A program made the position numbers and the translations under genes. 52,290 bases of DNA, taken from positions 1 to 52,290 of the IMG/VR virus record IMGVR_UViG_3300024259_000046; one strand, given 5' to 3'. This document shows positions 2,552-52,290 of the stretch, one piece after another (position 1 is the stretch's first letter; each line of letters begins with the position of its first letter). The stretch is from a virus. Its lineage: Duplodnaviria > Caudoviricetes. The notes under the pieces were generated by a model, which ran no database searches, was not told where the DNA came from, and saw only the letters and a program-made list of their open reading frames with translations.

Positions 2552-3046
2552 ATGGAAGACTCTTTTGAAGATTTGAACGAAAGAAACCGTAATTATATTG
2601 CGGATGCAAATAACCGGAACCTAATGGAGAAACTCACAGATTTTGGTACGGGGGCGACCAGATGTTCCGATGCAGATGAGGAGAGATTTGATTTAATTTC
2701 TCCTTACTTTCTACAGAGGCTTTCAAAAATTATGGCACAGGGGGCAGAAACTCATGGGGAAGATAACTGGAGATTGGGGATTCCGATATCCGTTACTTTG
2801 AACCATTTGGAAAGACACCTGAACCAGTGGAAGCGGGATGTTCTTTCGGGTGAGATAGCAACAGAGGACCACTTAGCCAAAGTGGCCTTTGGCATCATGG
2901 CGATATGTCACTATCAAGCTGTGGGTCCATTAAAGTGGGGTAGCTTTACAGATAAGGATAGGTTGAAGGACTACCTTGGGTTTGGTAGTAAAGAGCCTCA
3001 AATCGAATCTGAGGCGGGCAGTTCTAGTAAATCGGCCACTTCTTGA
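2552..3046 (+). CDS. dATP/dGTP diphosphohydrolase-like (DUF5664-type) protein
   Basis: GAETHGEDNWRLG...HLERHL...EDHLAKVAFG motifs; GGAGG RBS. Confidence 0.75.
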   Translation: MEDSFEDLNERNRNYIADANNRNLMEKLTDFGTGATRCSDADEERFDLISPYFLQRLSKIMAQGAETHGEDNWRLGIPISVTLNHLERHLNQWKRDVLSGEIATEDHLAKVAFGIMAICHYQAVGPLKWGSFTDKDRLKDYLGFGSKEPQIESEAGSSSKSATS

Positions 3047-6023: not shown

Positions 6024-6355
6024 CGCTATAAAATGTAGCACTATTTCGTGCCTGTTTAGACACAGTGAAATAAATCCTTTGTTATCAACGACTTAACGTG
6101 CCTCAAAATGAAGCACCAGAAATGGTAAATGCTACAAAATGAAGCAAATTCAAAATATTGACAGGGGTGTATGAATTTTCATAACAAAGCGTCACAATAT
6201 TGACGATATTTATCTAAAATCATATACTTCAAAACATCCGATAAAATAAGATAAGAATATGATGGACTTTTTGACGGTGTATAGATTTAGATAAATGATA
6301 ATTACAAAATCATACACCTGTCTCAATATGAGACGACTTGTCTCAAAATGAGACG
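6024..6355. promoter_or_regulatory. Cluster of 16-17-bp palindromes (Fis/NtrC-family enhancer-like) plus an IHF-like site
   Basis: CGCTATAAAATGTAGCA 6024, TGCCTCAAAATGAAGCA 6099, TGCTACAAAATGAAGCA 6130, CGTCACAATATTGACG 6190, TGTCTCAATATGAGACG 6319, TGTCTCAAAATGAGACG 6339; TATCAACGACTTA 6083-6095 fits WATCAANNNNTTR. Confidence 0.6.
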
Positions 6356-6492
6356 CTCTTAAATGCCGTTGTTTAAACAAAGAATATTTTCTAAGGGTAA
6401 CATAAGGGGGCGATTTGAACCGAGCGAAATAAAGACACAGACGCTTAGAATCGACAAACTCACCTTATCACCTTATCACTATCACTATCGCT

Positions 6493-6622
6493 TTGGCATG
6501 ATTCGTGATAAAGCAATAATCGTGCCAAACCTATGACAGCTTATTGGTATGATACTTGCAAGGTGCAATACCTATGCCAGCTTATTGGTATGATAATTGC
6601 AGGGATGCAAGGGTCGTGCCTT
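6493..6622. promoter_or_regulatory. Six sigma54-type boxes in three head-to-head pairs
   Basis: +6493 (degenerate), -6512..6528, +6544..6560, -6564..6580, +6585..6601, -6606..6622; five have GG-N10-GC. Confidence 0.7.
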
Positions 6623-6762
6623 CATGGTGATATAGTTATGAAGTGAATTATCGTTTTTCCGATATAGCGACCCGGCCCCCCAAGCCCACCGCCCCATGCC
6701 AAATTTATATCTTTTGTATACGAAAATTTTGGAAATTCAAAAGGCACCCCCCTAAATAACTA

Positions 6763-6792
6763 TTGACCCACCCCCCTAAATTATGTTATCAT
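6763..6792 (+). promoter_or_regulatory. sigma70-type promoter
   Basis: TTGACC-18-TATCAT with extended TG. Confidence 0.5.
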
Positions 6793-6823
6793 CCAATAAC
6801 AATAATTTTTTGGGGCAACACAA

Positions 6824-7591
6824 ATGGAATTGATAAAAGACGGTGGGAGGATGTGTACAATGTCTCCCGAGGAGAGGTTCGATATAAAATATTCCGAGAA
6901 TTCTAATGGTTGCTGGGAGTGGCTCGGAAACATGAAAAACCATAGGACGGCCACTTTCATGGTTCGGGGAGAAAAATACCCCGCGTCTAAATTTTCTTAT
7001 GAGAGATTTGTCGGCCCAGTCCCAAAAGGTATGTTTATACAAAAAACATGCAATAACTCCCGGTGTGTTAACCCCAAACATTTGATTTTATCCCAATCTG
7101 CCACTGGGGGTAAAACACTGACCCACAAAATCCCGGAGTTTTGCCGAAGGGGTCATAAATATGAACCGGTTTACCGACCGCCGGGGTCGGGAAAAAACAG
7201 AGCGTGTAGAGAATGCCGAGCGGAAGATAAAAGAAACACAAAACAGCGCGCTCGGGTAAAGTATCTTTCTGAAACCCTGTCGAAATATAACAGTGTTAAC
7301 AAAATAACATCAGACAAATTATTAGAACATTCCGTTCAACTGGATGTGGGGCATTGTGTGTATTTTCTTTTCGACGACAGCGAAATTGTTTATATAGGCA
7401 GATCAGGGAATGGCCCCTTTAGGCGATTGGCAGACCATCTTATGAAGAAAAAAATGATCTTTGACAAGATGGCCTTCATATTATGCACTGAGAAGGAATC
7501 GTCTACAATCGAAGCGGCTTATATAAACGCCCACAACCCCAAGTATAACATAGCCAAGATAAATTTAGATTTTTTGCAAAAAAGTGCTTGA
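6824..7591 (+). CDS. Chimeric HNH-like/Zn-finger + GIY-YIG endonuclease
   Basis: CWEWLG...TCNNSRCVNPKHL; CRRGH...CRECR; VYFLF...VYIGRS...RLADH...E...NPKYN. Confidence 0.75.
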   Translation: MELIKDGGRMCTMSPEERFDIKYSENSNGCWEWLGNMKNHRTATFMVRGEKYPASKFSYERFVGPVPKGMFIQKTCNNSRCVNPKHLILSQSATGGKTLTHKIPEFCRRGHKYEPVYRPPGSGKNRACRECRAEDKRNTKQRARVKYLSETLSKYNSVNKITSDKLLEHSVQLDVGHCVYFLFDDSEIVYIGRSGNGPFRRLADHLMKKKMIFDKMAFILCTEKESSTIEAAYINAHNPKYNIAKINLDFLQKSA

Positions 7592-7616
7592 CACCCTATA
7601 GGGGGTAGTGTAGGAT
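7588..7616 (+). promoter_or_regulatory. sigma70 promoter of the tRNA operon
   Basis: TTGACA-17-TAGGAT, 15 nt before the first tRNA. Confidence 0.8.
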
Positions 7617-7631
7617 GGGTCTAGAAAATTT

Positions 7632-7706
7632 GCTCGTATCGTCTAACGACCAAGACACCTGTTTTGTAATCAGGTAATCAGGGTTTGATTCCTTGTATGA
7701 GCTCCA
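7632..7706 (+). tRNA. tRNA-Thr(UGU)
   Basis: Cloverleaf, loop ttTGTaa, encoded CCA. Confidence 0.85.
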
Positions 7707-7710
7707 ATTC

Positions 7711-7800
7711 GGAAGATTGACTGAGTCTGGCTTAAGGTTCCCGTTTTGAAAACGGATGGTGGTCAAACACCCGTGGGTTCGAATCCTACATCTTCCTCCA
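7711..7800 (+). tRNA. tRNA-Ser(UGA)
   Basis: Loop ttTGAaa, long variable arm, CCA. Confidence 0.92.
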
Positions 7801-7804
7801 ATTC

Positions 7805-7890
7805 GGTAGGTTGGCAGAGTGGTAATGCACCCGGTTGCTAACCGGCACGCCGTCAAAGGCGCAGAGGTTCGATCCCTCTACCTACCTCCA
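7805..7890 (+). tRNA. tRNA-Ser(GCU)
   Basis: Loop ttGCTaa, long variable arm, CCA. Confidence 0.92.
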
Positions 7891-7946
7891 TAAGAGAACC
7901 GTGGAACGGGACTGATAACCACATGAAAAACTAATCCCACATATTC

Positions 7947-8021
7947 GATGCTCTGGCTGATTGGTCAGGCACCAGCTTGCAAAGCTGGCACAACTCGGTT
8001 CGATTCCGAGGGGCATCTCCA
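7947..8021 (+). tRNA. tRNA-Cys(GCA)
   Basis: Loop ttGCAaa, U73, CCA. Confidence 0.9.
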
Positions 8022-8025
8022 ATAC

Positions 8026-8113
8026 GTAGTCTACGGGAATGGTTCCCAAGCCGGCTGTAACCCGGCGGCTTCCGAAAGGGGCACAGGTGGTTCGACTCCA
8101 TCCGGCTACACCA
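8026..8113 (+). tRNA. tRNA-Tyr(GUA)
   Basis: Loop ctGTAac, long variable arm, CCA. Confidence 0.88.
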
Positions 8114-8121
8114 ATTAGTTG

Positions 8122-8150
8122 TTGACAAGTGTTGACAACAAGAGTAGTAT
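8122..8150 (+). promoter_or_regulatory. Internal sigma70 promoter in the tRNA array
   Basis: TTGACA-17-TAGTAT, 16 nt before tRNA-Ala. Confidence 0.8.
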
Positions 8151-8166
8151 TAGTTTTAGAAATTAT

Positions 8167-8245
8167 GGGGCATGGGACTGCATGCGGTGGTCACTTGTTT
8201 TGCAATCAAGATATCAGCGGGGTTGGATTCCCTGATGCTCCACCA
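8167..8245 (+). tRNA. tRNA-Ala(UGC)
   Basis: G3:U70 pair, loop ttTGCaa, CCA. Confidence 0.85.
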
Positions 8246-8350
8246 ACGACTTTGACGGTAGTTTGATCGAAAACAATTTACGGAGCTTCTAGACAGACCG
8301 TAAAGAGACGCGCTAGCTTCGAATAGCGCCCCGATAAGGTAAAAAATTAT

Positions 8351-8424
8351 AGTCCTTTAGTTCAAAAGGAGAACGCCTGTTTTACAAGCAGGATACGAGG
8401 GAGCATTACCTTCAAGGACTACCA
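8351..8424 (+). tRNA. tRNA-Val(UAC), non-canonical T-loop
   Basis: Loop ttTACaa; T-loop AGCATTA; CCA. Confidence 0.82.
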
Positions 8425-8430
8425 TATCAA

Positions 8431-8500
8431 GGCCTCGCCGCGAACGGCTGAAAACCCTGACGAGGGGATAATCATGGTTCAATTCCATGAGAGGTTACAA
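8431..8500 (+). ncRNA. Degenerate tRNA-like RNA (possible Val-GAC relic)
   Basis: GGCCTC/GAGGTT stem, GCCG-CGAA-CGGC arm, ctGACga loop, CATGG-TTCAATT-CCATG T-arm; no CCA. Confidence 0.5.
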
Positions 8501-8503
8501 TAC

Positions 8504-8579
8504 AGAGTGAAAGCAATTGTGGTCAATGCACCTGCTTGAAACACAGGCCAATTCGGTTCGAAACCGGGTCACTCTACCA
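8504..8579 (+). tRNA. tRNA-Phe(GAA)
   Basis: Loop ttGAAac, CCA. Confidence 0.85.
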
Positions 8580-8649
8580 AAAAGCTGTGTGATGGGGTAG
8601 GTCCATCTTGGCGGTTACGGCTACGGCATAACCGGACGGACAAATTAAA

Positions 8650-8721
8650 GCGGCTGGTGTCTGGTGCTCACAGAGGTCTTCCAAACCACTAGTCAGGGTT
8701 CGATTCCCTGTTGCCGCTCCA
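8650..8721 (+). tRNA. tRNA-Gly(UCC)
   Basis: GCGGC acceptor, U73, loop ctTCCaa, CCA. Confidence 0.85.
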
Positions 8722-8728
8722 AGGAATA

Positions 8729-8802
8729 GGTCGAAAATGAGGGTTTCGAAACCCCTCTCCCGAGCAACAGTCTCGGGGTCGTCTAAAGGCAGGACGTCGG
8801 CC
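8729..8802 (+). ncRNA. Circularly permuted tRNA / YrlA-like Y RNA
   Basis: Order is T-arm, loop-closed acceptor stem, D-arm, all enclosed by GGTCGA/TCGGCC. Confidence 0.7.
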
Positions 8803-8810
8803 GCGATTAT

Positions 8811-8882
8811 GGTGTTTGTTCCTGAGTGGACTCTTCGGCTGTGACCCGAGGAGATTGGGGGCAGTACCCAACATTCACCCCA
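8811..8882 (+). tRNA. tRNA-His(GUG)
   Basis: G-1/C73, loop ctGTGac, CCA; atypical T-loop GGCAGTA. Confidence 0.8.
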
Positions 8883-8968
8883 ATTAGGTTGAGAAGCCGC
8901 TACCGGCGTCGTTGGCCCGAGTCGTTGCGTAGGCATCCGGAATCGGGTCATATTTTCAAGGCGAAGGC

Positions 8969-9085
8969 ATGCAGTATATTTTTTGGACATGCAAAAGGTG
9001 CGGTAAGAATGTTGGCCCTTGGGTCAAGTTTGTAGAATTTGTTTTTAATACACATCAGCATACGTGTATAAAGTTTCAACTATAG
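8969..9085 (+). CDS. 38-aa Cys/His peptide (possible Zn finger) inside the tRNA array
   Basis: MQYIFWTCKRCGKNVGPWVKFVEFVFNTHQHTCIKFQL; AAGGC upstream. Confidence 0.45.
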   Translation: MQYIFWTCKRCGKNVGPWVKFVEFVFNTHQHTCIKFQL

Positions 9086-9159
9086 TATTGTCGTCTAACT
9101 GGTAAGACGCCGGTCTGTTAAACCGGAAAATGTAGGTTCGAATCCTACTGATACTGCCA
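9084..9159 (+). tRNA. tRNA-Asn(GUU)
   Basis: Loop ctGTTaa, G73, CCA. Confidence 0.9.
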
Positions 9160-9168
9160 ATTCAGAGC

Positions 9169-9242
9169 GGGTCAATGGTGTAGTGGTAACATAGATGCCT
9201 CCAAACCATTTGACTGGGGTTCGATTCCTCGTTGGCCCGCCA
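9169..9242 (+). tRNA. tRNA-Trp(CCA)
   Basis: Loop ctCCAaa, G73, CCA. Confidence 0.85.
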
Positions 9243-9340
9243 GATATACTTGGGTAAGGGTCTACAAGTCGTGCGGTGATCACGTTAAAACGCCCGAGGG
9301 TGGTGCGGCGAACCTCGCAAAAAACCGCTCCCCAAATTAT

Positions 9341-9414
9341 TGCGGTGAGAATTGGTAATTCAACCACGGCTCATATCCGTGGCTCCGCGGGTTCAATTCC
9401 CGTCGCCGCTACCA
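9341..9414 (+). tRNA. tRNA-Met(CAU), initiator-like
   Basis: Loop ctCATat; U1.U72 mismatch, G2-C71, C3-G70, A73. Confidence 0.85.
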
Positions 9415-9417
9415 ACA

Positions 9418-9491
9418 TAGGGTGTAGTATTAATTAAATACGTTCGGGAAATCGAGTACCGGAAGATGTGGGCCAAACCCCTCCACCCCAG
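9418..9491 (+). ncRNA. tRNA-like cloverleaf with an 11-nt anticodon loop
   Basis: TAGGGTG/CACCCCA, GTAT/ATAC D-arm, TTCGG-GAAATCGAGTA-CCGGA, GTGGG/CCCTC T-arm. Confidence 0.55.
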
Positions 9492-9497
9492 AAATAC

Positions 9498-9571
9498 GGC
9501 TTTATAGCTTAATGTAAAGCACCATCCTGTCAAGATGGGAGACACGGTATCGATCACCGTTAAGGCCGCCA
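9498..9571 (+). tRNA. tRNA-Asp(GUC)
   Basis: Loop ctGTCaa, G73, CCA. Confidence 0.87.
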
Positions 9572-9631
9572 TACGCAATGCATTAGAGAGTTGGGCTGGC
9601 TCTAGTGGGCGAAACTGGTCCACCAAATTAA

Positions 9632-9705
9632 CGCGGTGTCTTCTAATGGCAAGAAACCCGGCCGATAACCGGGCAACGAAGGATCGATACCTTCCACTGC
9701 TACCA
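9632..9705 (+). tRNA. tRNA with GAU anticodon (Ile) on an initiator-like body
   Basis: Loop ccGATaa; acceptor CGCGGTG/CACTGCT-A; CCA. Confidence 0.82.
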
Positions 9706-9713
9706 AATAGTGA

Positions 9714-9792
9714 TGTTGGTTCGTTCAAAATGGACTAAGGATACTGGGCTTTGAACCCGGTGATGTGGGTTCGAGTCCCACACCGACTTCCA
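9714..9792 (+). tRNA. tRNA-Gln(UUG)
   Basis: Loop ctTTGaa, CCA. Confidence 0.88.
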
Positions 9793-9800
9793 AAATAAAT

Positions 9801-9877
9801 GCTCCTCTAGCCCAATTGGCAGAGGCACCCGGCTTAGACCCGGTCCAGTGAGGGTTCGAATCCTTCGGGGAGTACCA
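9801..9877 (+). tRNA. tRNA-Leu(UAG), short variable loop
   Basis: Loop ctTAGac, A73, CCA. Confidence 0.9.
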
Positions 9878-9881
9878 ATAC

Positions 9882-9958
9882 GCTCGTGTAGCCCAATTGG
9901 AAGAGGCGACTGGCTCAAACCCAGTTGGTTGAAGGTTCGAATCCTTCCATGAGTACCA
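9882..9958 (+). tRNA. tRNA-Leu(CAA), short variable loop
   Basis: Loop ctCAAac, CCA. Confidence 0.9.
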
Positions 9959-9959
9959 A

Positions 9960-10036
9960 GCTCTTCTAGCCCAACTGGTAGAGGCAGGCGCCTTAAAAGC
10001 GCCAAAGTGTAGGTTCGAATCCTACGAGGAGTACCA
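9960..10036 (+). tRNA. tRNA-Leu(UAA), short variable loop
   Basis: Loop ctTAAaa, CCA. Confidence 0.9.
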
Positions 10037-10042
10037 AATTAC

Positions 10043-10122
10043 GTCACTGTCTTCTAAACAAGGACTAGGAATCTGGGTTTTCACCCCGGACAATGCGGGT
10101 TCGAGCCCCGTCAATGACCCCA
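10043..10122 (+). tRNA. tRNA-Glu(UUC)
   Basis: Loop ttTTCac, CCA. Confidence 0.85.
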
Positions 10123-10128
10123 ATTAAC

Positions 10129-10204
10129 GCCCTGTTAGTTCAACTGAACAGAGCACTTGGCTACGAACCATGAAATGCGGGTTTGAATCCTGCACAGGGC
10201 TCCA
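10129..10204 (+). tRNA. tRNA-Arg(ACG)
   Basis: Loop ctACGaa, CCA. Confidence 0.88.
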
Positions 10205-10251
10205 AATTATGACAACTTCAACTCAAAAGACTAAACACGGCGACAAATTAT

Positions 10252-10328
10252 GCCTCCGTGGTGAAATTGCGTATCACATCGGTCTTTTAAACCGTAAGTT
10301 GCAGGTTCGAGTCCTGTCGGGGGCACCA
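10252..10328 (+). tRNA. tRNA-Lys(UUU)
   Basis: Loop ctTTTaa, CCA. Confidence 0.88.
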
Positions 10329-10345
10329 ATAGCTTAAGGAGACGA

Positions 10346-10420
10346 CCTCCTGTAGCTCAATGGCAGTAGCACCGGCCTTATAAGCCGGCGACCTTGGATC
10401 GTAACCAAGCAGGAGTACCA
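10346..10420 (+). tRNA. tRNA-Ile(UAU)
   Basis: CCGGC-ctTATaa-GCCGG; C1.U72; T-loop ATCGTAA; CCA. Confidence 0.82.
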
Positions 10421-10426
10421 AATTAC

Positions 10427-10502
10427 GCCCTGTTAGTTCAACTGAACAGAGCACCGGGTTTCTACCCCGGGGATACGGGTTTGAATCCTGTACAGGGCCC
10501 CA
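10427..10502 (+). tRNA. tRNA-Arg(UCU)
   Basis: Loop ttTCTac, CCA; 5' 28 nt identical to tRNA-Arg(ACG). Confidence 0.88.
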
Positions 10503-10508
10503 TAATAA

Positions 10509-10586
10509 CTGTGAGTAAGTCAGTCTGGCCAGACGACCCGCTTTGGAAGCGGGGGGACGCAGGTTCGAATCCTGCCTCGCAGACCA
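10509..10586 (+). tRNA. tRNA-Pro(UGG)
   Basis: C1-G72, A73, loop ttTGGaa, CCA. Confidence 0.9.
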
Positions 10587-14987: not shown

Positions 14988-16670
14988 ATGGAACTAGACA
15001 CAGACCAAGCAATTGTTCAGCACCACATTAAACAACAAGCCGCGGCATCCAACCGTCGTTCACAGTTTGACCAGCACTGGGAAGACTTGGGCAGAGTAAT
15101 GCTCTCTACCCGTCAAGGGTTTACATCAACAATTATTGATGGGGACTACAGACTGGAAGATGTGTATGATGGGACACCTATGCAGAATGCTAGAAGTTTA
15201 GCTAATACTGTGGGGGCAATGATCCGACCAGAAGGTGAAGACCTCGTCAGATTGAAAGCCGAGGATGATAGCATAAATGACCAAGGTGACGCGAACGACT
15301 GGTTAGGCCGTGCCAGCATGATTCTAAATCAATCGATGCGTGAACCGAGAGCCAGATTCAGACAGGCCACCGGTGAAGTCGACCTTGATCTTGTGGTAAT
15401 GGGAACTGGGATTTTATTTGCCGGCTTGGCACAGTCACAGGACCATTTGATATACCAAAGTGTGCATCTGAAAGACGGCTTCCCAATGTTTAACGACGAA
15501 GGTAACCCGCACGGATTGTACAGAACCAAGAAGGTTTTTATCTGGCAGGCAGAACTGATGTTTGGCAGAGAAAATCTTTCAACCGAAGTTCAAGAGAAAA
15601 TACAGGCGAACCAACATGGTGACATTAAGATCGATCTCTTATATTGGGTGGGGAAGAGAAAAGGCGCACAAGAAGATGATCCAATCTTTGCTACCAACTT
15701 ACCATACGAAGAAATTTGGATGGAAGTTCAAACGAAGCACATCATCGCAGAAGGCGGCTTCCACGAATTCCCTTTCATTATCCCACGGTGGGACACTACA
15801 GCAGGAGAGGAGTACGGTCGATCTCCGGGTATGATCGCTCTACCTGATGCTAACACACTTCAAGCAATGGGCGAAACCATCTTGGTTGCTGGTCAGCGAT
15901 TAGCTGATCCTCCAATCATGGCTCCACATGATGGTATGTTCCAAGAAGTTATGACGTTCCCCGGGGGTATCACTTATTACGATCCGGCTTCGGCCGCCGC
16001 TGTTGGTGGTAACCCATTCTTCCCAATGGTGTCTGGAAACAACTTACCCGTTACTCGGGATATGCAAACAGATATAAGGAATCAAGTCTCTGCGGCTTTC
16101 TTTAGAAATATACTGAACTTGCCTCAAGATGGTCCCCAAATGACTGCGACAGAAATCATCCAACGAAAGGATGAGTTTATTCGCGAGGTTGGTCCGGTAT
16201 TTGGTAGATTCCAAACAGACTATAACGAACCACTGGTTAACCGTTCGTTCCGTATTCTGTTCCGTGAAAACGCCTTCGGTGAACCACCGGAGTCATTGGC
16301 TGGACAAAATATCAAGTTCGTATTTGACCTACCGGTTAACAAGATCAAGAAACAAGTTCAAGCGGCCGCGGCAACGCAGTTTGCTTTGGAAATGCTTCAA
16401 CTGTCTCAAGCCTATCCACAGGCGAAACACATTGTTAACGTGGACGCGCTGGCCCGTCACAACGCTGATGCCGCCGCACTGCCACATGACATTGTGAATT
16501 CGAAAGAGGAAGTGGCTCAGAAGGTCCAAGCTGAACAACAAGCTCTGGCCGAACAACAAAAAATGGCTATGATGGAGCAGGGCGCCAACACAGCAAGCAA
16601 GGGCGCTAAAGCCATGAAGGACGCGGGGCTTGTACAAGACCCGAATAAACCTGTAGAAGGAGAAGCTTAA
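14988..16670 (+). CDS. Portal (head-to-tail connector, T7 gp8-like)
   Basis: FPFIIPRW...GEEYGRSP, MTATEI motifs. Confidence 0.93.
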   Translation: MELDTDQAIVQHHIKQQAAASNRRSQFDQHWEDLGRVMLSTRQGFTSTIIDGDYRLEDVYDGTPMQNARSLANTVGAMIRPEGEDLVRLKAEDDSINDQGDANDWLGRASMILNQSMREPRARFRQATGEVDLDLVVMGTGILFAGLAQSQDHLIYQSVHLKDGFPMFNDEGNPHGLYRTKKVFIWQAELMFGRENLSTEVQEKIQANQHGDIKIDLLYWVGKRKGAQEDDPIFATNLPYEEIWMEVQTKHIIAEGGFHEFPFIIPRWDTTAGEEYGRSPGMIALPDANTLQAMGETILVAGQRLADPPIMAPHDGMFQEVMTFPGGITYYDPASAAAVGGNPFFPMVSGNNLPVTRDMQTDIRNQVSAAFFRNILNLPQDGPQMTATEIIQRKDEFIREVGPVFGRFQTDYNEPLVNRSFRILFRENAFGEPPESLAGQNIKFVFDLPVNKIKKQVQAAAATQFALEMLQLSQAYPQAKHIVNVDALARHNADAAALPHDIVNSKEEVAQKVQAEQQALAEQQKMAMMEQGANTASKGAKAMKDAGLVQDPNKPVEGEA

Positions 16671-39282: not shown

Positions 39283-39393
39283 TAGCTTTATTTGGTGCCG
39301 TCGTTTCAAGTATTCTGTACGTTGGCATAGATCATGCATGGAAAAGTTACCAGAAGGACAAACGAAAACAAAAACGAAAGGATAAAAAAGGCG

Positions 39394-40644
39394 ATGTTTA
39401 AAAAATTAGGTATTTACGGAACAGGTATAGGTTTGATCTTTGTATTTTTCTTCGGCTCACAACTCTTGTCCACGGTGGAGAAGGGGACGTTCGAAGTCAG
39501 GCAGTTCCCGGTAACGGGTACGATTGATGTCCGCAACACCCCCGGAACATGGTGTAAGTGCTTCGCGACTCTGGACATCTGGAAGAAATCAAAGACGTTC
39601 AAGTTTGATGGGAAAGAACACTCACTCCTACCCGTCCGGTTTAATGACGGGTCGGCCTCGCATGTCAAAGGTGAAGTACGGGTAGAGTTCCCATCCTCAT
39701 TGAGCGCAGTCAATAACTTCCTGGAAATGGGTTACGCTAACCAGCATGATGTTATGGAACGGTTGGTCTACCCCCACTTGCTACGGGTTATGCGCTTACA
39801 GGGGAACTTCATGACCGCTAAGGAATCTTACAACCAGAAGCGGCCGGACTTTGACAGTAACTCTTTCGACCAGTTGCAGTTTGGTGTATATAAAACTAAG
39901 ACCCAGACCGTAACAGAGAAAGACATCATGACCGGTGAAGATAGAACGAGGGAATTTAAGATCGTTCTATATGGTGAAGACGGAGAACCTCTCCGTGAAC
40001 AGAACCCACTGGAAGGCACGGGTATTACTTTCAACGCTTATGTTATTGAGAGTATCAAATACCCTGATGTTGTGAACGAACAGATTGAAGCTCAGCGTAA
40101 AGCCATCATGGAAGTTGAGACTGCTATCGCCGAAGCTAAGAAGTCCGAGCAGGATGCTAAGACTATCAAGATGGAAGGTGAAGCCAAAGTTATGACAGCC
40201 CGGTACGAGAAAGAACAGGAGAAAGTTCGGGCTACTGTTGAAGCGGAGAAACGTAAACAAGTAGCAACACTGGACGCTGAAAAACGACTGGACGTTGCGA
40301 AGCTTGACAAACTGGCCGCAGAACAGTATAAAGAAGAGCAGATTTTGAAGGGGCAAGGTGAAGGTGAGCGTAAGAAGTTGGTTATGCAAGCTGACGGAGC
40401 TCTTCAACAAAAGCTTGCCGCTTGGGTTGATGTTAACACCAAGTACGCCGCGGCTATTAAGGGTTTTCAAGGCGACTGGGTTCCAAGGTTGGTCATGGGT
40501 AACACCGGTGAAGGCAAAGGCGCATCCGCCAGTCCGGCCAATGACCTGATAAGTCTGTTTACAGCGAAGACTGCCGGAGATATTTCATTGAGCATGGATA
40601 TCCCACGTAGTAATCACAAGCATAAAACAGATTTAACCAAGTAG
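39394..40644 (+). CDS. SPFH/band-7 family membrane protein
   Basis: N-terminal TM, VRFNDG core, AEA-rich coiled coil. Confidence 0.8.
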   Translation: MFKKLGIYGTGIGLIFVFFFGSQLLSTVEKGTFEVRQFPVTGTIDVRNTPGTWCKCFATLDIWKKSKTFKFDGKEHSLLPVRFNDGSASHVKGEVRVEFPSSLSAVNNFLEMGYANQHDVMERLVYPHLLRVMRLQGNFMTAKESYNQKRPDFDSNSFDQLQFGVYKTKTQTVTEKDIMTGEDRTREFKIVLYGEDGEPLREQNPLEGTGITFNAYVIESIKYPDVVNEQIEAQRKAIMEVETAIAEAKKSEQDAKTIKMEGEAKVMTARYEKEQEKVRATVEAEKRKQVATLDAEKRLDVAKLDKLAAEQYKEEQILKGQGEGERKKLVMQADGALQQKLAAWVDVNTKYAAAIKGFQGDWVPRLVMGNTGEGKGASASPANDLISLFTAKTAGDISLSMDIPRSNHKHKTDLTK

Positions 40645-40654
40645 GAAAACTGTT

Positions 40655-40670
40655 GGGGCCTTCGGGCCCC
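40655..40670 (+). terminator. GC hairpin with UUCG loop (weak terminator or stabiliser)
   Basis: GGGGCC-TTCG-GGCCCC, poor U-tract. Confidence 0.5.
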
Positions 40671-40691
40671 GCTTAACTTAAAGGCGAATCC

Positions 40692-41522
40692 ATGATATTC
40701 CTAAACAAAGAACCTGTAGAGACACACAAATTCAGCGGCGGAGAATGCCATGTCAAACTCCCCGTTCCTTATCATAAAGAAGAAGCACACATCGACGCAT
40801 GTCTGTATAACTCCGATGATATTATGTCGTTGATGATGACTGTAGATGCGCTTCGACAGATCAATGGAATGATGAAGATCAATGTCACCATACCTTACTT
40901 CCCCTACGCTAGACAGGACAGGGTGTGTGAACCCGGCGAAGCTTTCAGCTTAAAAGTAATGGCTGACCTGATCAACTCTCTTAAGGTGGACAGCGTGGTA
41001 GTCATTGACCCGCACTCCAAAATGACACCGAGTCTTTTAGATAACTGTATGGTGTATGATCAACATGCTTGTGTTACAACACACATGTGGCACATGCTAC
41101 GTAACACAGACACCACACTTGTAGCACCTGATGAAGGCGCAAAAGAGAAGACTTTAAATTTGGCCTGTGATTTGGGCGTAGATTATATCACCTGCACAAA
41201 AGTCAGAGACACCAAGACCGGTGATATAACTAAAACATATGTCCCGCAAGGTAACCCGACTAGGAACTACATGATCATCGATGATATATGTGATGGGGGG
41301 AGAACTTTCATAAATATCGCAAATATTCTAATGGAAGATGGCGTACCAAGAAAAAACTTGTCTTTGTACGTGACCCATGGTATATTTTCGAACGGCTTTG
41401 CAGAACTGGTAAGCCGATTTGAAAAACTTTATTGTTATCATCTGTTCCCGAACGTGGATACACACACCTTACCGTTCGGTTACTTAACCGTATTCAAGGG
41501 AGAAAAAAGCTATGTTCATTGA
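40692..41522 (+). CDS. Ribose-phosphate pyrophosphokinase-like enzyme (Adps-like)
   Basis: FSGGE, PYFPYARQDR, DPHS, APDEGA, IIDDICDGGRTF, VTHGIFS. Confidence 0.9.
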   Translation: MIFLNKEPVETHKFSGGECHVKLPVPYHKEEAHIDACLYNSDDIMSLMMTVDALRQINGMMKINVTIPYFPYARQDRVCEPGEAFSLKVMADLINSLKVDSVVVIDPHSKMTPSLLDNCMVYDQHACVTTHMWHMLRNTDTTLVAPDEGAKEKTLNLACDLGVDYITCTKVRDTKTGDITKTYVPQGNPTRNYMIIDDICDGGRTFINIANILMEDGVPRKNLSLYVTHGIFSNGFAELVSRFEKLYCYHLFPNVDTHTLPFGYLTVFKGEKSYVH

Positions 41523-42990
41523 CCCATTTGCGTGTACAGATTTCTATAAGATAGGCCACATCAAACAGTACCCCAAACGTACTGAAATGGTTTACTCCAA
41601 TATGACTGCGCGGGATAGTTCTCACGCCAACACTATCTTCGGTGATAAGTTTGTAATCAACTTCGGATTGCAGTATGTTATCCAGAAGTTCTTGGTGGAA
41701 GACTGGAACCAGAACTTCTTCGACCGACCGGAAGAGGAAGTTGTCGCCCGGTACGAACGACGTATCAGTGCTACTCTGGGTGAGCCTCATGCAGATTCCA
41801 CCCATGTACGGGCCTTACACAAGCTCGGTTACCTGCCTATCCTGATAAAGGCTCTACCCGAGGGGGCAAGAGTACCTGTTGGGGTTCCTCTGTTCACCAT
41901 TCAAAACACCGAGCCCGAGTTCTTCTGGTTGACCAACTTCTTAGAGACAGCGTTGTCCGGCTTCTTGTGGAAGCCCATAACTTCTGCAACAATGGCTTAT
42001 GAATACCGCAGACTGTTTGATCAGTATGCAGAGGAGACAGGTGGGGACAAAGAGTTCGTTCCTTTCCAAGGGCACGACTTCTCCTTCCGTGGTATGTCCA
42101 ACGTGGAAGACGCCGCGTTAAGCGGAGCCGCTCACTTGACAAGCTTCGTAGGGACTGACTCTATCATTGCTATCGACCTACTGGAACAATACTATCAAGC
42201 TGATGTCACCAAAGGTTTAGTCGGGTGTTCTGTGCCGGCCACGGAGCATTCTGTAATGTGCATGGGCGGTGAGTTGGACGAGAAGGCTACGTTCGAACGC
42301 CTGATCGGTGAGTTGTACCCCGCTGGTATCGTTTCCATTGTGTCTGACACTTGGGACTTCTGGAAAGTTGTCACCGAAACTCTGCCGGAATTGAAGTACA
42401 AAATTCTGGAGCGTGATGGTAAACTTGTCATCAGACCAGACAGCGGCGACCCGGTTAATATTATTTGTGGTGATCTTGGCGCGAAAAGAGGAAGCCCAGA
42501 ATTTAAGGGGTTGATCGAATGTCTTTGGGATACCTTCGGAGGGGAGACAAACGAGAAGGGTTATAAGAAACTAGACTATCACATAGGAGCCATCTACGGT
42601 GACGCTATCAATCTGGTACGGGCCGAAGATATTATGCGCAGGTTAGCGGACAAAGGATTTACTTCCGACAACGTTGTGTTAGGTATTGGTTCCTTTACAT
42701 ACCAGTACGTGACGAGAGACACACATGGGTTTGCTATTAAATCTACCGCCGGGCAGTTGGACGGTGAAATTGTAGAGATATTCAAAGACCCGAAGACAGA
42801 CAGTGGTATTAAGAAGTCCGCCAAGGGTCTACTGCGTGTGTCTAAGAACCAGCAACGGAAGTATGAACTGCACGATCAACAAACACCAGACGAAGAGAAG
42901 GAAGGTGAGTTGAAGACCGTGTTTATTAACGGCGAACCCTTCAACCGCTGGTCTCTTGAAGATATCAGGGAGCGTATCGCTAATGGTTAA
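41512..42990 (+). CDS. Nicotinamide phosphoribosyltransferase-like enzyme (Namat-like)
   Basis: TDFYKIGH, HDFSFRG, SVPATEHS, SIVSDTWD, VIRPDSGDP, KKSAKG. Confidence 0.93.
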   Translation: MFIDPFACTDFYKIGHIKQYPKRTEMVYSNMTARDSSHANTIFGDKFVINFGLQYVIQKFLVEDWNQNFFDRPEEEVVARYERRISATLGEPHADSTHVRALHKLGYLPILIKALPEGARVPVGVPLFTIQNTEPEFFWLTNFLETALSGFLWKPITSATMAYEYRRLFDQYAEETGGDKEFVPFQGHDFSFRGMSNVEDAALSGAAHLTSFVGTDSIIAIDLLEQYYQADVTKGLVGCSVPATEHSVMCMGGELDEKATFERLIGELYPAGIVSIVSDTWDFWKVVTETLPELKYKILERDGKLVIRPDSGDPVNIICGDLGAKRGSPEFKGLIECLWDTFGGETNEKGYKKLDYHIGAIYGDAINLVRAEDIMRRLADKGFTSDNVVLGIGSFTYQYVTRDTHGFAIKSTAGQLDGEIVEIFKDPKTDSGIKKSAKGLLRVSKNQQRKYELHDQQTPDEEKEGELKTVFINGEPFNRWSLEDIRERIANG

Positions 42991-47913: not shown

Positions 47914-49164
47914 ATGCCTATCAAACAAGTAATCCATAACAAAGACACAAGCGTACCGGTAAAAATCTGGACTGATGATCTTGACGACAAAACGTTAGCA
48001 CAACTCCAAAATCTCACTACCTTACCTTTTGTCCACAAGCATGTTGCCGTTATGCCAGACGCCCATCTGGGTATCGGGTGTACCATTGGGACTGTCTTGC
48101 CTACTTACAAAGCGATCATCCCGGCGGCGGTGGGAGTTGACATTGGTTGTGGTATGTCCGCAATCAAAACGAACCTCCATGCTAACGATCTGCCGGAGTC
48201 AATGACGGAAATTCGTCAGAAGATTGAACGCGCTGTACCAACCGGTTTCCGCGGTCATACCGAGGATTTGGAACTGGACTTCGAACACAACCTGATGCAG
48301 TTCGCTAACAGACGTTTCGATCCGATGGCGTTGTTCGCATCACAATCTGTTGTCAATTATTTCTTCAAACAAAATGACCCGGAAGAAGTTTTCGAGATTA
48401 AAGCTAAGAACTGGAGAGCACAACTTGGTTCGCTGGGCGGGGGCAATCACTTTATTGAGATTTGTTTAGACGAGAACGATGATGTCTGGGTAATGATCCA
48501 CAGTGGTTCCCGCGGTGTGGGGAATACCATTGGGCGTACGTTCATCCAACGGGCGAAGGAAGATATGATCAAACATCATATCACCAACTTGCCTGATGTT
48601 GACCTGTCGTACCTGTCAGAAGGAACTGACAACTATGACGAGTATATCGAGGCTGTCAGTTGGGCTCAGGAGTACGCAAAATTGAACAGACGGGTGATGC
48701 TAACCCTCATATTCAAAGAACTGGCGCACTTCTTCCCAACGGTTGCTGTCAAGGATGGTGCGTTCGATTGCCATCATAACTATGTCACGATGGAGAATCA
48801 TTATGGAAAAAACGTATGGGTTACGCGTAAAGGCGCAATTCGTGCCCGGGAAAACGACATGGGGGTCATACCCGGTTCAATGGGGGCCCAGTCGTTTATC
48901 GTACGAGGGAAGGGGAATCCGGAGGCGTTTCACTCTTGTTCCCATGGAGCAGGTCGTAAAATGTCTAGACGGGAAGCAATGCGCCTGTTTACTCTGGAAG
49001 ACGTTCGGGATCAAGTAGGTGACGTCAATATGGACCTCAGAAAAGGTTTCATCGACGAAGCCCCGGGCTCGTATAAAGATATTGCCACCGTGATGGAGAA
49101 TCAGGACGATTTGGTATCAATTGTGCATACATTAAAACAGATTGTTAATATCAAGGGGGACTGA
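47914..49164 (+). CDS. rtcB: RtcB RNA 2',3'-cyclic-phosphate/5'-OH ligase
   Basis: MPDAHLG, VGVDIGCG, GGGNHF, HSGSRG, HHN, RKGA, PGSMG, SHGAGR, DEAPGSYK. Confidence 0.96.
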   Translation: MPIKQVIHNKDTSVPVKIWTDDLDDKTLAQLQNLTTLPFVHKHVAVMPDAHLGIGCTIGTVLPTYKAIIPAAVGVDIGCGMSAIKTNLHANDLPESMTEIRQKIERAVPTGFRGHTEDLELDFEHNLMQFANRRFDPMALFASQSVVNYFFKQNDPEEVFEIKAKNWRAQLGSLGGGNHFIEICLDENDDVWVMIHSGSRGVGNTIGRTFIQRAKEDMIKHHITNLPDVDLSYLSEGTDNYDEYIEAVSWAQEYAKLNRRVMLTLIFKELAHFFPTVAVKDGAFDCHHNYVTMENHYGKNVWVTRKGAIRARENDMGVIPGSMGAQSFIVRGKGNPEAFHSCSHGAGRKMSRREAMRLFTLEDVRDQVGDVNMDLRKGFIDEAPGSYKDIATVMENQDDLVSIVHTLKQIVNIKGD

Positions 49165-49436
49165 TGAAAACATTTATATTTACTTTGCTGGGTCTTGCTA
49201 TTGTGGTCCCGGCGTATTTTCTTATTGACATGCAACGCAACCCCGGGCCCACTATGGCCGTGGAGGCCGACGAAGGTTTTAAGTGTAAAGTGCTTTACAA
49301 ATACCCGAAAGTGTGGCAATGTAGACATGAAAACGGATCGAACTTTTTGGTCGATCTGTACCTCACTCACAACGGCGTCGCCGTTATAGGAGAACAAGGC
49401 AATGGAAGACTACAAGAAGTTCCCAAAGATCGCTAG
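49164..49436 (+). CDS. Small membrane-anchored protein
   Basis: N-terminal TM, between the two ligases. Confidence 0.55.
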   Translation: MKTFIFTLLGLAIVVPAYFLIDMQRNPGPTMAVEADEGFKCKVLYKYPKVWQCRHENGSNFLVDLYLTHNGVAVIGEQGNGRLQEVPKDR

Positions 49437-50082
49437 GCTAAACAAGCCTATCGTAATCACTGAAAAACTCGATGGTACAAATGCCCAAGTCGTAATCGGC
49501 GAGGATATGTCCGTTCGTGCGGGTAGCAAGAACCGTTGGCTCACCCCCGGCAAAGAGGACAACTACGGCTTCGCCGCGTGGGTTGAAGAAAACGAAGAGC
49601 AGTTGAAAGAACTCGGACCCGGGAACCACTGGGGGGAATGGTGGGGAGAAGGGATTCAACGGAACTATGGTATGGAACGTAAAGTTTTCAGTCTGTTTAA
49701 CACGGACAAATGGCTTGACGATGTTATGCGTCCAGACTGTTGTGATGTTGTACCGGTGCTGTGGACTTGTGAAGAATTTAGTTCAACTATCATCTGGCGC
49801 GCAATGGAAGATTTGCAGTTACGTGGCAGTGAAGCGGCTCGGAAGTATAGCATCGATTTTGCATCTCCAGAGGGTGTAGTGGTATTCCACACTGCCGCGA
49901 ACTTGTGCTTCAAAGTTCCCTTCGAAGAAACTCACAAGTACGAGAAGAAACAGAAGAACAAAAGTACGCACAAAGGTAACAAAGGCGACCGCAGAGTCAA
50001 GTTTGATGTGCTCGGGATGCCACAAGCGGGAGACCCGGGTAAGGCTCCCATTGATCGAAGAGCAAAAGAACACGTTTATTAA
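49402..50082 (+). CDS. ATP-dependent RNA ligase (Rnl2-like)
   Basis: ITEKLDGTN, GEWWG, PEGVV, FK nucleotidyltransferase motifs. Confidence 0.85.
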   Translation: MEDYKKFPKIARLNKPIVITEKLDGTNAQVVIGEDMSVRAGSKNRWLTPGKEDNYGFAAWVEENEEQLKELGPGNHWGEWWGEGIQRNYGMERKVFSLFNTDKWLDDVMRPDCCDVVPVLWTCEEFSSTIIWRAMEDLQLRGSEAARKYSIDFASPEGVVVFHTAANLCFKVPFEETHKYEKKQKNKSTHKGNKGDRRVKFDVLGMPQAGDPGKAPIDRRAKEHVY

Positions 50083-51720: not shown

Positions 51721-51895
51721 ATTATATGTCTTTCTGTGGGCTTTTAAGCTCATGTTATTCATACCAGACGCCCCGGGGTACACCCCTGTGGCCGTGTTCG
51801 AGACCGCGCAGGAATGTCAGGCCAACAAGTCGGAAGATGTTGACGACCTGTGCGCTCGGCACATTTACTTTATTAATGAGGAGCAAACGAAATGA
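51710..51895 (+). CDS. Small secreted protein
   Basis: Hydrophobic N-terminus, FETAQEC motif. Confidence 0.55.
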   Translation: MSIELYVFLWAFKLMLFIPDAPGYTPVAVFETAQECQANKSEDVDDLCARHIYFINEEQTK

Positions 51896-52290
51896 ATTTA
51901 GAAAAAACTTTATCTCTACACAAGGATTGGTTAAATGACAACACCGGTGGGCGAAGATGCAACCTGCAAGAGGCCTACCTGCAAGAGGCCTACCTGCAAG
52001 AGGCCAACCTGCAGGGGGCCAACCTGCGAGGGGCCAACCTGCGAGGGGCCAACCTGCAAGAGGCCTACCTGCAAGAGGCCTACCTGCAAGAGGCCAACCT
52101 GCAAGAGGCCTACCTGTGGGGGGCCAACCTGCAGGGGGCCAACCTGCAAGAGGCCAACCTGCAGGGGGCCAACCTGCGAGGGGCCAACCTGCAAGAGGCC
52201 AACCTGCGGGGGGCCAACCTGCAAGAGGCCAACATGCGGGGGGCCAACCTGCAAGAGGCCAACCTGCGGGGGGCCAAAAATTACACCCCT
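51892..52290 (+). CDS. Pentapeptide-repeat protein, 3'-truncated by the window
   Basis: MNLEKTLSLHKDWLNDNTGGRRC then about 21 x A(N/Y)L(Q/R)(E/G); 15-bp tandem repeats at 51961-52275; no stop. Confidence 0.92.
   Translation, partial: MNLEKTLSLHKDWLNDNTGGRRCNLQEAYLQEAYLQEANLQGANLRGANLRGANLQEAYLQEAYLQEANLQEAYLWGANLQGANLQEANLQGANLRGANLQEANLRGANLQEANMRGANLQEANLRGAKNYTP

Follow-up and report, generated by a model that had tools for sequence, protein, structure and literature searches.

A circularly permuted, anticodon-less element of tRNA-Gln type in the tRNA array of a phage without a Ro60 gene

The effector domain of the YrlA Y RNAs mimics a tRNA in permuted order, with a closed acceptor stem, and its partner is not known (10.1101/312249). 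The present analysis concerns a 74-nt element with the same order of arms, located at positions 8729..8802 on the + strand of the virus record IMGVR_UViG_3300024259_000046; the window, as the term is used here, is this whole record of 52,290 bases, which CheckV rates as complete (100%). YrlA is modified by TruB and DusA (PMC4201824; 10.1101/312249), the arrangement of Ro60 plus YrlA in phages has already been described (PMC4201824, PMC11482910), and phage Y-like RNAs bind host PNPase in gel shifts without Ro60 (PMC12135203). The published YrlA surveys searched only next to Ro60 (PMC4201824), and our literature searches, the coverage of which is incomplete, returned no description of such elements in Ro60-less phages. 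YrlA-like tRNA mimics are already known; what is new here is a stand-alone, tRNA-Gln-type form in a genome that lacks Ro60.

The element is located in a tRNA array on the + strand (7632-10586) of a podovirus-like phage, which has a GC content of ~47% and a portal protein ~30% identical to pelagiphage portals. Metagenome runs from many studies, of seawater and marine origin, contain near-identical DNA. With moderate confidence, we interpret the element as a real non-coding RNA gene that specifies a stand-alone, Ro60-independent, permuted mimic of the tRNA body, derived from tRNA-Gln. It looks like a working tRNA look-alike, rather than a decoder or a scar, since similar elements are present in the tRNA clusters of other phages.

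Fold and boundaries of the element

All the segments that the sequence-only reading had listed were found where it had placed them, in the order of a circularly permuted, anticodon-less tRNA of the tRNA-Gln type. The 5' strand of the outer helix, GGTCGA (8729..8734), stands where the 3' strand of an anticodon stem would be, and pairs in all 6 of 6 positions with the 3' strand TCGGCC (8797..8802). The variable region AAAT (4 nt, 8735..8738), whose last base is U48, the partner of A15, leads to the T arm (8739..8757). The acceptor 3' strand TCCCGAG (8758-8764) and the acceptor 5' strand CTCGGGG (8772-8778) enclose a 7-nt linker or loop, CAACAGT (8765-8771), and form a closed hairpin of 7 bp with one G.U pair; CCA is not encoded. 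The unit is completed by TC (U8-C9, 8779-8780), the D arm GTCT-AAAGGCA-GGAC (8781-8795) and G26 (8796). One detail needed correction, namely the sixth pair claimed for the T stem, which is a T.C mismatch. The T arm consists instead of 5 bp (GAGGG/CCCTC) and a 9-nt loop, TTTCGAAAC, in which the TTCGA core is flanked by an unpaired T and an unpaired C.

The minimum free energy (MFE) structure calculated by RNAfold for the 74 nt is a four-way junction formed by the paired ends, the T arm, the acceptor hairpin and the D arm, with an energy of -28.7 kcal/mol. Shuffled sequences reach -21.8 +/- 3.3 kcal/mol (z = -2.1), and 6 of 200 of them fold as well, so this statistic alone is modest. Together with the compensatory changes in relatives (see below), the MFE structure upholds two earlier claims: that the cloverleaf is open at the position of the anticodon loop and closed at the acceptor end, and that it has the YrlA-like order of T arm, acceptor and D arm with paired ends. 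The RNA is read from the + strand, like the array, because its three G.U pairs would turn into C.A mismatches on the other strand; an RNA from the reverse strand was dropped for these three mismatches. The bases for the tertiary contacts of a tRNA are all in place (U8, A14, A15/U48, G18, G19, A21, G26/A44 and U54/A58).

The element occupies a slot of its own, 7 nt after the CCA of tRNA-Gly and 8 nt before the G-1 of tRNA-His, and flanks of only 7 and 8 nt leave no place for outer tRNA halves. Neither ARAGORN nor the Rfam model RF00005 calls an ordinary tRNA over 8722-8810. The strands that would belong to an acceptor stem and an anticodon stem cross-pair in 12 of 12 positions in the element, with one extra pair, whereas 12 pairs of adjacent tRNAs of the same array cross-pair in at most 10 of 12, the maximum being reached by a Leu-Leu pair. 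This control consists of the 12 tRNA pairs of the window; seven rows from the related locus L060, whose registration was faulty (self-pairing 2-6 out of 7), were left out. The short flanks and the difference in cross-pairing exclude a tandem-tRNA junction. A group I intron or a split tRNA was also dropped, because no 3' half follows downstream, the unit at 8811-8882 being a separate tRNA-His.

Recurrence and covariation in other tRNA arrays

Relatives of the element were reached via its neighbour. Metagenome contigs were scanned for the T arm of the tRNA-His, and 31 loci were fetched. A covariance model (CM) built from the window element alone (R1), which gives 108.7 bits on that element, matched three loci over their full length and wholly inside gaps between tRNAs: L091 (5490-5563, 33.3 bits), 2 and 9 nt from tRNA-Phe and tRNA-Ser, L064 (2331-2406, 32.1 bits), which follows a tRNA-Pro and has the 9-nt form of the T loop as in the window, and L075 (1612-1685, 24.7 bits), also after a tRNA-Pro. 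A second model (R2) was built from these three sequences and the window element and run over 50 sources comprising 357,782 bases. It yielded 7 matches of at least 42 bits, all of them with 0 nt overlap with ARAGORN tRNAs. The window element reaches 82.5 bits by construction, since it is one of the four training sequences. L060 (413-480, 42.4 bits) lies outside the training set, and L085 (993-1063, 50.8 bits) has an acceptor hairpin that is capped by a UUCG tetraloop. An unannotated 80-nt element of the Streptomyces phage Stella (OP751154, ~16050-16129; 2997-3076 of L097) scores 52.1 bits; this cultured phage of 46.5 kb has its element in an 89-nt gap without annotation, with tRNA-Pro on one side and tRNA-Gly on the other.

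Below these seven, the next 26 matches have 25-35 bits, and 21 of them are tandem-tRNA junctions, with an overlap with tRNAs of 29-70 nt. Candidates at L070/L077 3891-3963 and L081 2062-2133 were rejected as tandem-tRNA junctions. Five weaker stand-alone matches were set aside as ambiguous or as junctions of tRNAs that ARAGORN misses, and are left uncounted (window 9534-9662, L060 557-627, L093 1063-1126, L093 238-308 and L064 2020-2140). The window element has all the properties that delimit the class: it stands alone, scores at least 42 bits, overlaps no tRNA and keeps its four helices by compensation. The class consists of recurrent stand-alone units in phage tRNA arrays that have the architecture of the tRNA-like (effector) domain of YrlA. 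Two forms are distinguished by the D arm, which is of the tRNA-Gln type in the window, L064, L075 and L085, sharing the arm UC-GUCU...GGA(C/U), and of the YrlA type in L091, L060 and Stella.

Compensatory changes in homologues, on which the earlier claim of a permuted fold was to be judged, are present in 17 of 22 pairs, including those of both helices that define the permutation. In the alignment of the seven sequences (A4: window, L064, L075, L085, L091, L060 and Stella) standard pairs fill 93.5% of 154 cells; 0 of 500 shuffles reach the observed values, and pairing in slid controls amounts to 39-47%. Most of the covariation signal comes from the topology-defining helices, with compensation in 5 of 6 pairs of the outer helix and in 7 of 7 of the closed acceptor helix; the T-arm helix is paired in 100% of its cells across the 7 sequences. 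The Levitt 15-48 pair (columns 10-72 of A4) is A-U in four sequences and G-C in three, and thus complementary in 7 of 7. When the four Gln-type members are taken alone, 93.2% of cells are paired, 13 of 22 pairs are compensatory, and RNAalifold gives the same junction. As these alignments had been fitted to the model, a structure-blind one was made by applying MAFFT, and then RNAalifold, to six sequences with 8-nt flanks. The outer helix was recovered with 5 pairs, all compensatory and none broken. The D helix and, in part, the T helix were recovered too; the acceptor hairpin was lost to misalignment caused by its loop length.

Recurrence also bears on the possibility that the element is a non-functional scar, formed by the inner halves of a tandem tRNA-Gln duplication from which the outer halves and the anticodon loops were deleted in a recent event. 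Tandem isoacceptors do cross-pair, as the Leu-Leu pair of the array demonstrates, and 4 of 27 viral contigs have truncated 5' halves of tRNA-Gln. Other degenerate tRNA-like units exist in the array, the T loop of the element is aberrant, no close homologue was found, and in L091 an ordinary tRNA-Gln is located directly 5' of the tRNA-His, in the slot filled by the element here. However, a scar requires two deletions, both with an end point precisely at the anticodon stem. Six other arrays have a stand-alone unit of this topology with identical boundaries and compensatory changes in both topology-defining helices, one copy (L085) is capped by UUCG, and the bases for tertiary contacts are all intact. 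A scar is decidedly unlikely in our judgement.

Several points nevertheless weigh against a functional tRNA-body mimic. Five exact and degenerate patterns, searched in IMG/VR and the JGI metagenomes, revealed no close homologue; they returned 0, 4, 0, 0 (metagenomes) and 3 matches. The four matches comprise one ordinary tandem tRNA and three unrelated sequences, and the best of the three in the other scan reaches only 10.3 bits with R1. Among cultured phages, no match to the element appeared when the region was searched by megablast and blastn, and a blastn search with the whole array returned generic tRNA matches only; the L064 element had no blastn match, and the Stella element matched only itself. 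In 20 terminase relatives no similarity to the array was detected by blastn, and the 10 of them scanned with ARAGORN had no tRNA. Since close homologues are missing, homology with L064, L075 and L085 rests on 25-33 bits from a single-sequence model; part of these R1 scores is generic likeness to tRNA-Gln, and a convergent origin of the element and these three is possible.

Other points concern the covariation signal and the element itself. The pair counts come from alignments fitted to the model, and any RNA that consists of two halves of one tRNA inherits paired stems, so part of the signal reflects internal consistency and not common ancestry. The T loop has 9 nt rather than 7. In the contigs of three further runs (X2, X3 and X4) the element shows 0 differences, which leaves no variation within the population for a test of covariation; the contig of run X6 does not reach the element. 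The listed sequencing runs that hold this DNA include no RNA-type run. Other degenerate tRNA-like units in the array indicate that some decay is ongoing there, and the other carrier records have no common partner gene (Ro60 in 2 of 3, Band_7 in 1 of 3, RtcB in 0 of 3). Recurrence with the same boundaries is evidence that does not depend on such inherited pairing.

tRNA-Gln ancestry, RNA ligases and Ro60

Both halves of the element are tRNA-Gln-like. In the D-arm half, a 21-nt string that covers 8779-8796 occurs without change in the 5' parts of tRNA-Gln-type genes from 27 viral contigs, which were sorted by eye into 23 full genes and 4 truncated copies. A 22-nt string that extends into the outer helix is identical in ordinary tRNA-Gln(TTG) genes in one bacterial metagenome-assembled genome and one viral contig, and these genes have the same type of 4-nt variable region. 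When the halves are swapped back and five loop bases are supplied from a viral tRNA-Gln, ARAGORN at default settings calls a tRNA-Gln; with N in the loop the re-permuted element is not called, whereas a control tRNA-Gln with N still is. The quality of the re-permuted body is thus that of a tRNA, but a borderline one, and the T loop of 9 nt is the probable reason. The array's own tRNA-Gln, called by ARAGORN at 9714-9792, is quite unlike the element.

This ancestry raises the question of whether the element could still become a tRNA. According to the sequence-only reading it might be a permuted tRNA gene matured by ligation. In the form considered here, an RtcB or Rnl-type ligase of the phage would circularize the transcript and RNase P/Z would open the acceptor loop, giving a working tRNA-Gln. 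The order of 3' half, 7-nt linker and 5' half and the 7-bp acceptor stem agree with such a gene, as does a body that is tRNA-grade once a loop is supplied. In M. smegmatis, RNase P cleaves a YrlA whose acceptor stem also has 7 bp, and CCA is added to this RNA (PMC4201824). The phage does encode the two RNA ligases noticed earlier, RtcB at 47914-49164 (418 bits) and a PF09414/PHROG RNA ligase at 49402-50082. However, 0 of 169 joinings of the halves with their natural flanks (0-12 bases on each side) were called tRNA and no U33-type loop can be formed from these flanks; from the joinings it follows that the element cannot become a decoder. The duplex between the window flanks (-10.2 kcal/mol) is equalled by 40% of shuffles, and flanks without a significant helix do not provide a bulge-helix-bulge (BHB)-like motif, as judged by this duplex test and not by a dedicated BHB search. 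Known permuted tRNA genes need a splicing endonuclease, an enzyme that has not been reported from bacteria (PMC3978253; 10.1101/312249). Moreover, the array already has a tRNA-Gln, the acceptor of L085 is closed by UUCG, and RtcB was detected in 0 of the 3 other carrier records searched (Stella, Sixama and the 16%-complete L060 contig). Maturation by ligation is not supported by these comparisons, and a permuted tRNA gene is very improbable.

The RtcB and ligase genes, together with a Band_7 protein gene (39334-40644, 26.9 bits), lie 30-40 kb from the element. Nothing was found that ties the phage RNA ligases to it, and they are better explained as tRNA repair enzymes that go with the full tRNA set. 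A search with the Band-7 protein in genome contigs gave no relative. The Band_7/SPFH gene (phrog_11908) is followed on the + strand, within 39334-42990, by genes for PRPP-synthetase-like and NAMPT/NAPRTase-family proteins, and judging by these assignments the region resembles a module for NAD salvage such as has been linked to counter-defence.

The second proposal of the sequence-only reading was a Y RNA that hijacks Ro60. In its full form, this explanation states that the element is a true YrlA-type Y RNA, which binds host Ro60 (Rsr) and tethers it to PNPase or another effector, the phage supplying the RNA half. The T-acceptor-D order with paired ends is that of YrlA (10.1101/312249), GUCGAA is present within the 5' strand, and related elements give matches to the YrlA model RF02553 that remain below its gathering threshold of 69 bits: L060 525-657 (53.4 bits), Gordonia phage Sixama (46.8 bits), L060 413-476 (36.3 bits), L091 (29.5 bits) and Stella (28.2 bits). 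These members have the D arm UA-GCUC...GAGC. In two carriers Ro60 is located ~1.3-5.5 kb from the element. Sixama has a TROVE match of 155 bits that is annotated as Ro-like, and the L060 contig has a 569-aa open reading frame (ORF) with vWA_Ro60 at 70 bits and a match to the Rsr of PDB 2nvo at 2e-20; with Ro60 nearby, these two conform to the known phage arrangement of Ro60 plus YrlA. The complete Stella genome contains an element without TROVE, which makes the use of host Ro60 conceivable; RtcB and Band_7 were not found in it either. As a separate observation, the L060 contig (IMG/VR, 72,447 b, 16% complete) is a jumbo-phage fragment with 26 tRNAs and a tmRNA, in which two tandem YrlA-like RNAs (413-657) stand just 5' of a tRNA-His and the Ro60 orthologue (6120-7829) is located inside the tRNA array.

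On the side of the window, architecture is the part of this proposal that stood, whereas family membership, the motif, room for a binding stem and a phage Ro60 were all lacking. RF02553 gave no match at the element at E<=10, whether 1.6 kb, the whole record or 151 nt was scanned. The four weak matches in the whole record, the best of 21.8 bits, all fall on tandem tRNA junctions; dimeric tRNA junctions are a known false positive of YrlA searches (PMC4201824). Among the other Gln-type members the scan covered L064 and L075 and gave no match at E<=1. The GNCGAA motif was confirmed as GTCGAA at 8730-8735, but the published form GNCGAAN0-1G was not, as AAT precedes the next G, which lies three bases past GAA. 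Nor do L064, L075 and L085 have the motif in their 5' strands, and GTCGAA is therefore most simply a leftover of the anticodon stem of tRNA-Gln. With an outer helix of 6 bp, flanks of 7 and 8 nt and no significant pairing between them, a Ro60-binding stem cannot be accommodated; at L060 413-480, by contrast, the flanks do pair (2% of shuffles). That the window holds no Ro60, as stated earlier, was borne out by a six-frame TROVE search of the 52,290 bases, which gave 0 candidates and detected the controls in the genomes of D. radiodurans and B. thetaiotaomicron. With the whole record searched, there was likewise no Ro60/TROVE within ~4 kb on the same strand, the criterion of Chen 2014. We consider a true YrlA-type Y RNA rather unlikely.

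Proposed role, surrounding array and known systems

For the RNA as a stand-alone tRNA-body mimic, we infer the following mode of action. The element would be one unit of a polycistronic tRNA operon, co-transcribed with the tRNAs, and would presumably be released by the cuts made at its neighbours, that is, by 3' processing of tRNA-Gly and by RNase P at tRNA-His. The RNA would take a tRNA-like L shape and act through this shape, as a non-decoding mimic that occupies or recruits a factor recognizing the tRNA body or elbow. Candidate partners could be a tRNA-targeting host nuclease, PNPase, or enzymes of tRNA processing and repair; action by Ro60 tethering or by decoding would not be involved. 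RNase P might open the perfect acceptor stem of 7 bp, as it does in the M. smegmatis YrlA (PMC4201824); the UUCG-capped relative L085, however, suggests that the closed acceptor form is the working one. The third proposal of the sequence-only reading, an uncleavable decoy, corresponds to such a mimic and would be compatible with all the observations.

It has been proposed that phages use their tRNA sets against defences that cleave tRNA (cited in PMC11482910). A wider generalization can be offered only tentatively, namely that phage arrays hide widespread Ro60-independent, anticodon-less tRNA-body RNAs of at least two lineages (Gln-type and YrlA-type), which serve as counter-defence molecules. 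If this were true, uncleavable look-alikes would jam host nucleases or sensors that recognize tRNA shape, or capture PNPase, and would shield the non-canonical tRNAs of the phage; the tRNA-like domain of YrlA would be a free-standing functional module to which Ro60 is an optional add-on. Here the tRNA-like domain is found alone, without a Ro60-binding stem, in a complete Ro60-less genome and in a second lineage that comes from tRNA-Gln. Because the domain occurs alone, a function of tRNA shape is separated from Ro60 tethering and becomes directly testable, and because Stella is cultured, knock-out and pull-down experiments are possible. More generally, structured RNAs that escape tRNA finders and Rfam can be present in the unannotated gaps of phage tRNA arrays, and they bear on the interpretation of phage tRNA sets in the arms race over tRNA cleavage.

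The array has 20 tRNAs according to ARAGORN and 19 according to Rfam at its gathering score. There is a tRNA for each of the 20 amino acids when the ARAGORN tRNAs are taken together with three Rfam-only tRNAs (Val, Asp and Ile, assigned by reading their anticodons), a probable tRNA-Ala below the threshold (8167-8245, +; 26.1 bits, anticodon TGC, G3.U70) and the non-canonical tRNA-His. A promoter-like site was found at 7588-7616 by a consensus scan. Another, TTGACA-17 nt-TAGTAT with 10 of 12 matches (8122..8150, +), could drive a sub-operon containing the element, to judge from its sequence. A terminator-like hairpin with a T-rich tail is located 3' of tRNA-His (8935..8957, +, with the hairpin at 8935-8948); the number of terminator-like sites in the scan is not above that of shuffles, which makes this site weak evidence. 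An ORF of 138 aa on the - strand (8574-8990) is treated as spurious, since it spans tRNAs and has no Pfam match.

The upstream neighbour of the element is tRNA-Gly(TCC) (8650..8721, +; ARAGORN), which ends in CCA. In run X2 a second contig has the exact tRNA-Gly stretch (8650-8722) with divergent sequence on both sides, so another genome there has an identical tRNA-Gly in another context. The downstream neighbour, the non-canonical tRNA-His(GTG) (8811..8882, +), has an encoded G-1 and CCA and the T loop GGCAGTA. Its D loop lacks GG and its acceptor stem contains two U.U mismatches, and it is missed by both ARAGORN and Rfam. A homologue is annotated as tRNA-His(GTG) in Streptomyces phage Jay2Jay. 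Its T-arm family was found at 30 of 31 fetched metagenome loci within phage-type tRNA arrays, and together with Jay2Jay this makes the tRNA-His type appear widespread among phages.

Further peculiarities of the array were noticed. T loops without TTCGA are present in the Val, Asp, Ile and Ile2/CAU-type tRNAs (8351-8421, 9498-9568, 9632-9702 and 10346-10420), namely AGCATTA, TATCGAT, ATCGATA and ATCGTAA; tRNAs with such an altered elbow may be relevant to escape from factors that read the tRNA elbow. Between the tRNAs there are unannotated units at 8425-8503, 8246-8350, 8580-8649, 9243-9340, 9415-9497, 9572-9631 and 10205-10251, many of which finish in CCA or ACA and are followed by an AATTA-type spacer, as is found after real tRNAs. 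The unit at 8425-8503 has a cloverleaf fold and a canonical T arm, with an 'anticodon' loop of 4 nt. These units could be further tRNA-derived small RNAs or decaying genes. Suppressor-type tRNAs were seen in other phage arrays: L044 has a CTA anticodon, read by eye, in a tRNA-Gln-like gene, and ARAGORN calls 'tRNA-Stop' at L060 4230-4306 and L089 2346-2421. Elsewhere in the window, a protein with a dATP/dGTP diphosphohydrolase N-terminal domain (PF18909, 50.6 bits) is encoded at 2552-3046 (+), and a pentapeptide-repeat protein at 51892-52290 (+) continues past the end of the record.

The element can be compared with five known systems. Like tandem tRNA junctions, which score 15-35 bits with both CMs, it carries a T arm and then a D arm on a single strand; unlike them, it has no outer halves, and its 82.5 bits contrast with at most 35. 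With two-piece (permuted) tmRNA it shares a T arm and acceptor 3' strand located upstream of the acceptor 5' strand. This identity was rejected, because ARAGORN calls no tmRNA, pair 3-70 is C-G and not G.U, and there is no tag reading frame. Over the element there is no match to RF04321, RF00023 or RF01849, the only RF04321 match being at 9386-9553 with 14.9 bits. The permuted tRNA genes of Cyanidioschyzon, green algae and Thermofilum (PMC3978253) resemble it in the succession of 3' half, short intervening sequence and 5' half, in the break at the anticodon region and in the CCA that is not encoded. In contrast to those genes, the anticodon loop of the element is absent and cannot be restored from the flanks, no BHB motif was seen (by the duplex test only), the setting is a bacterial virus for which no splicing endonuclease is known, and the relatives keep the acceptor closed, one of them with UUCG.

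A fourth system is the b7a-tRNA, a tRNA-like RNA proposed to act with RtcB-centred RNA repair, for which associations of RtcB and Band-7 are described (10.1101/312249). This phage likewise has RtcB and a Band_7 protein. However, b7a-tRNA is described as resembling an authentic tRNA and not as permuted; the genes here lie 30-40 kb away, and the other carriers have Band_7 in 1 of 3 and RtcB in 0 of 3. The fifth and closest system is YrlA. Its D arm and junction have the consensus UA-GCUC...GAGC, unlike the UC-GUCU...GGAC-G of the element, which is of the tRNA-Gln type. The element also differs in lacking the distal Ro60-binding stems, the complete GNCGAAN0-1G and the V stem-loop, in its perfect 7-bp acceptor stem, in a genome without Ro60 and in giving no RF02553 match. 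On the other hand, the layout of RF02553 (stem, 4 nt, T arm, closed acceptor-like hairpin, UA, D arm, stem) recurs in the element, with paired ends in place of the anticodon stem, a variable region of 4 nt, a T arm, a closed acceptor and a D arm. The tertiary bases of tRNA are kept in both, the 15-48 pair covaries as Chen 2014 reports for YrlA, and YrlA too is found in phage genomes inside tRNA arrays, in Sixama and L060, where it stands beside Ro60.

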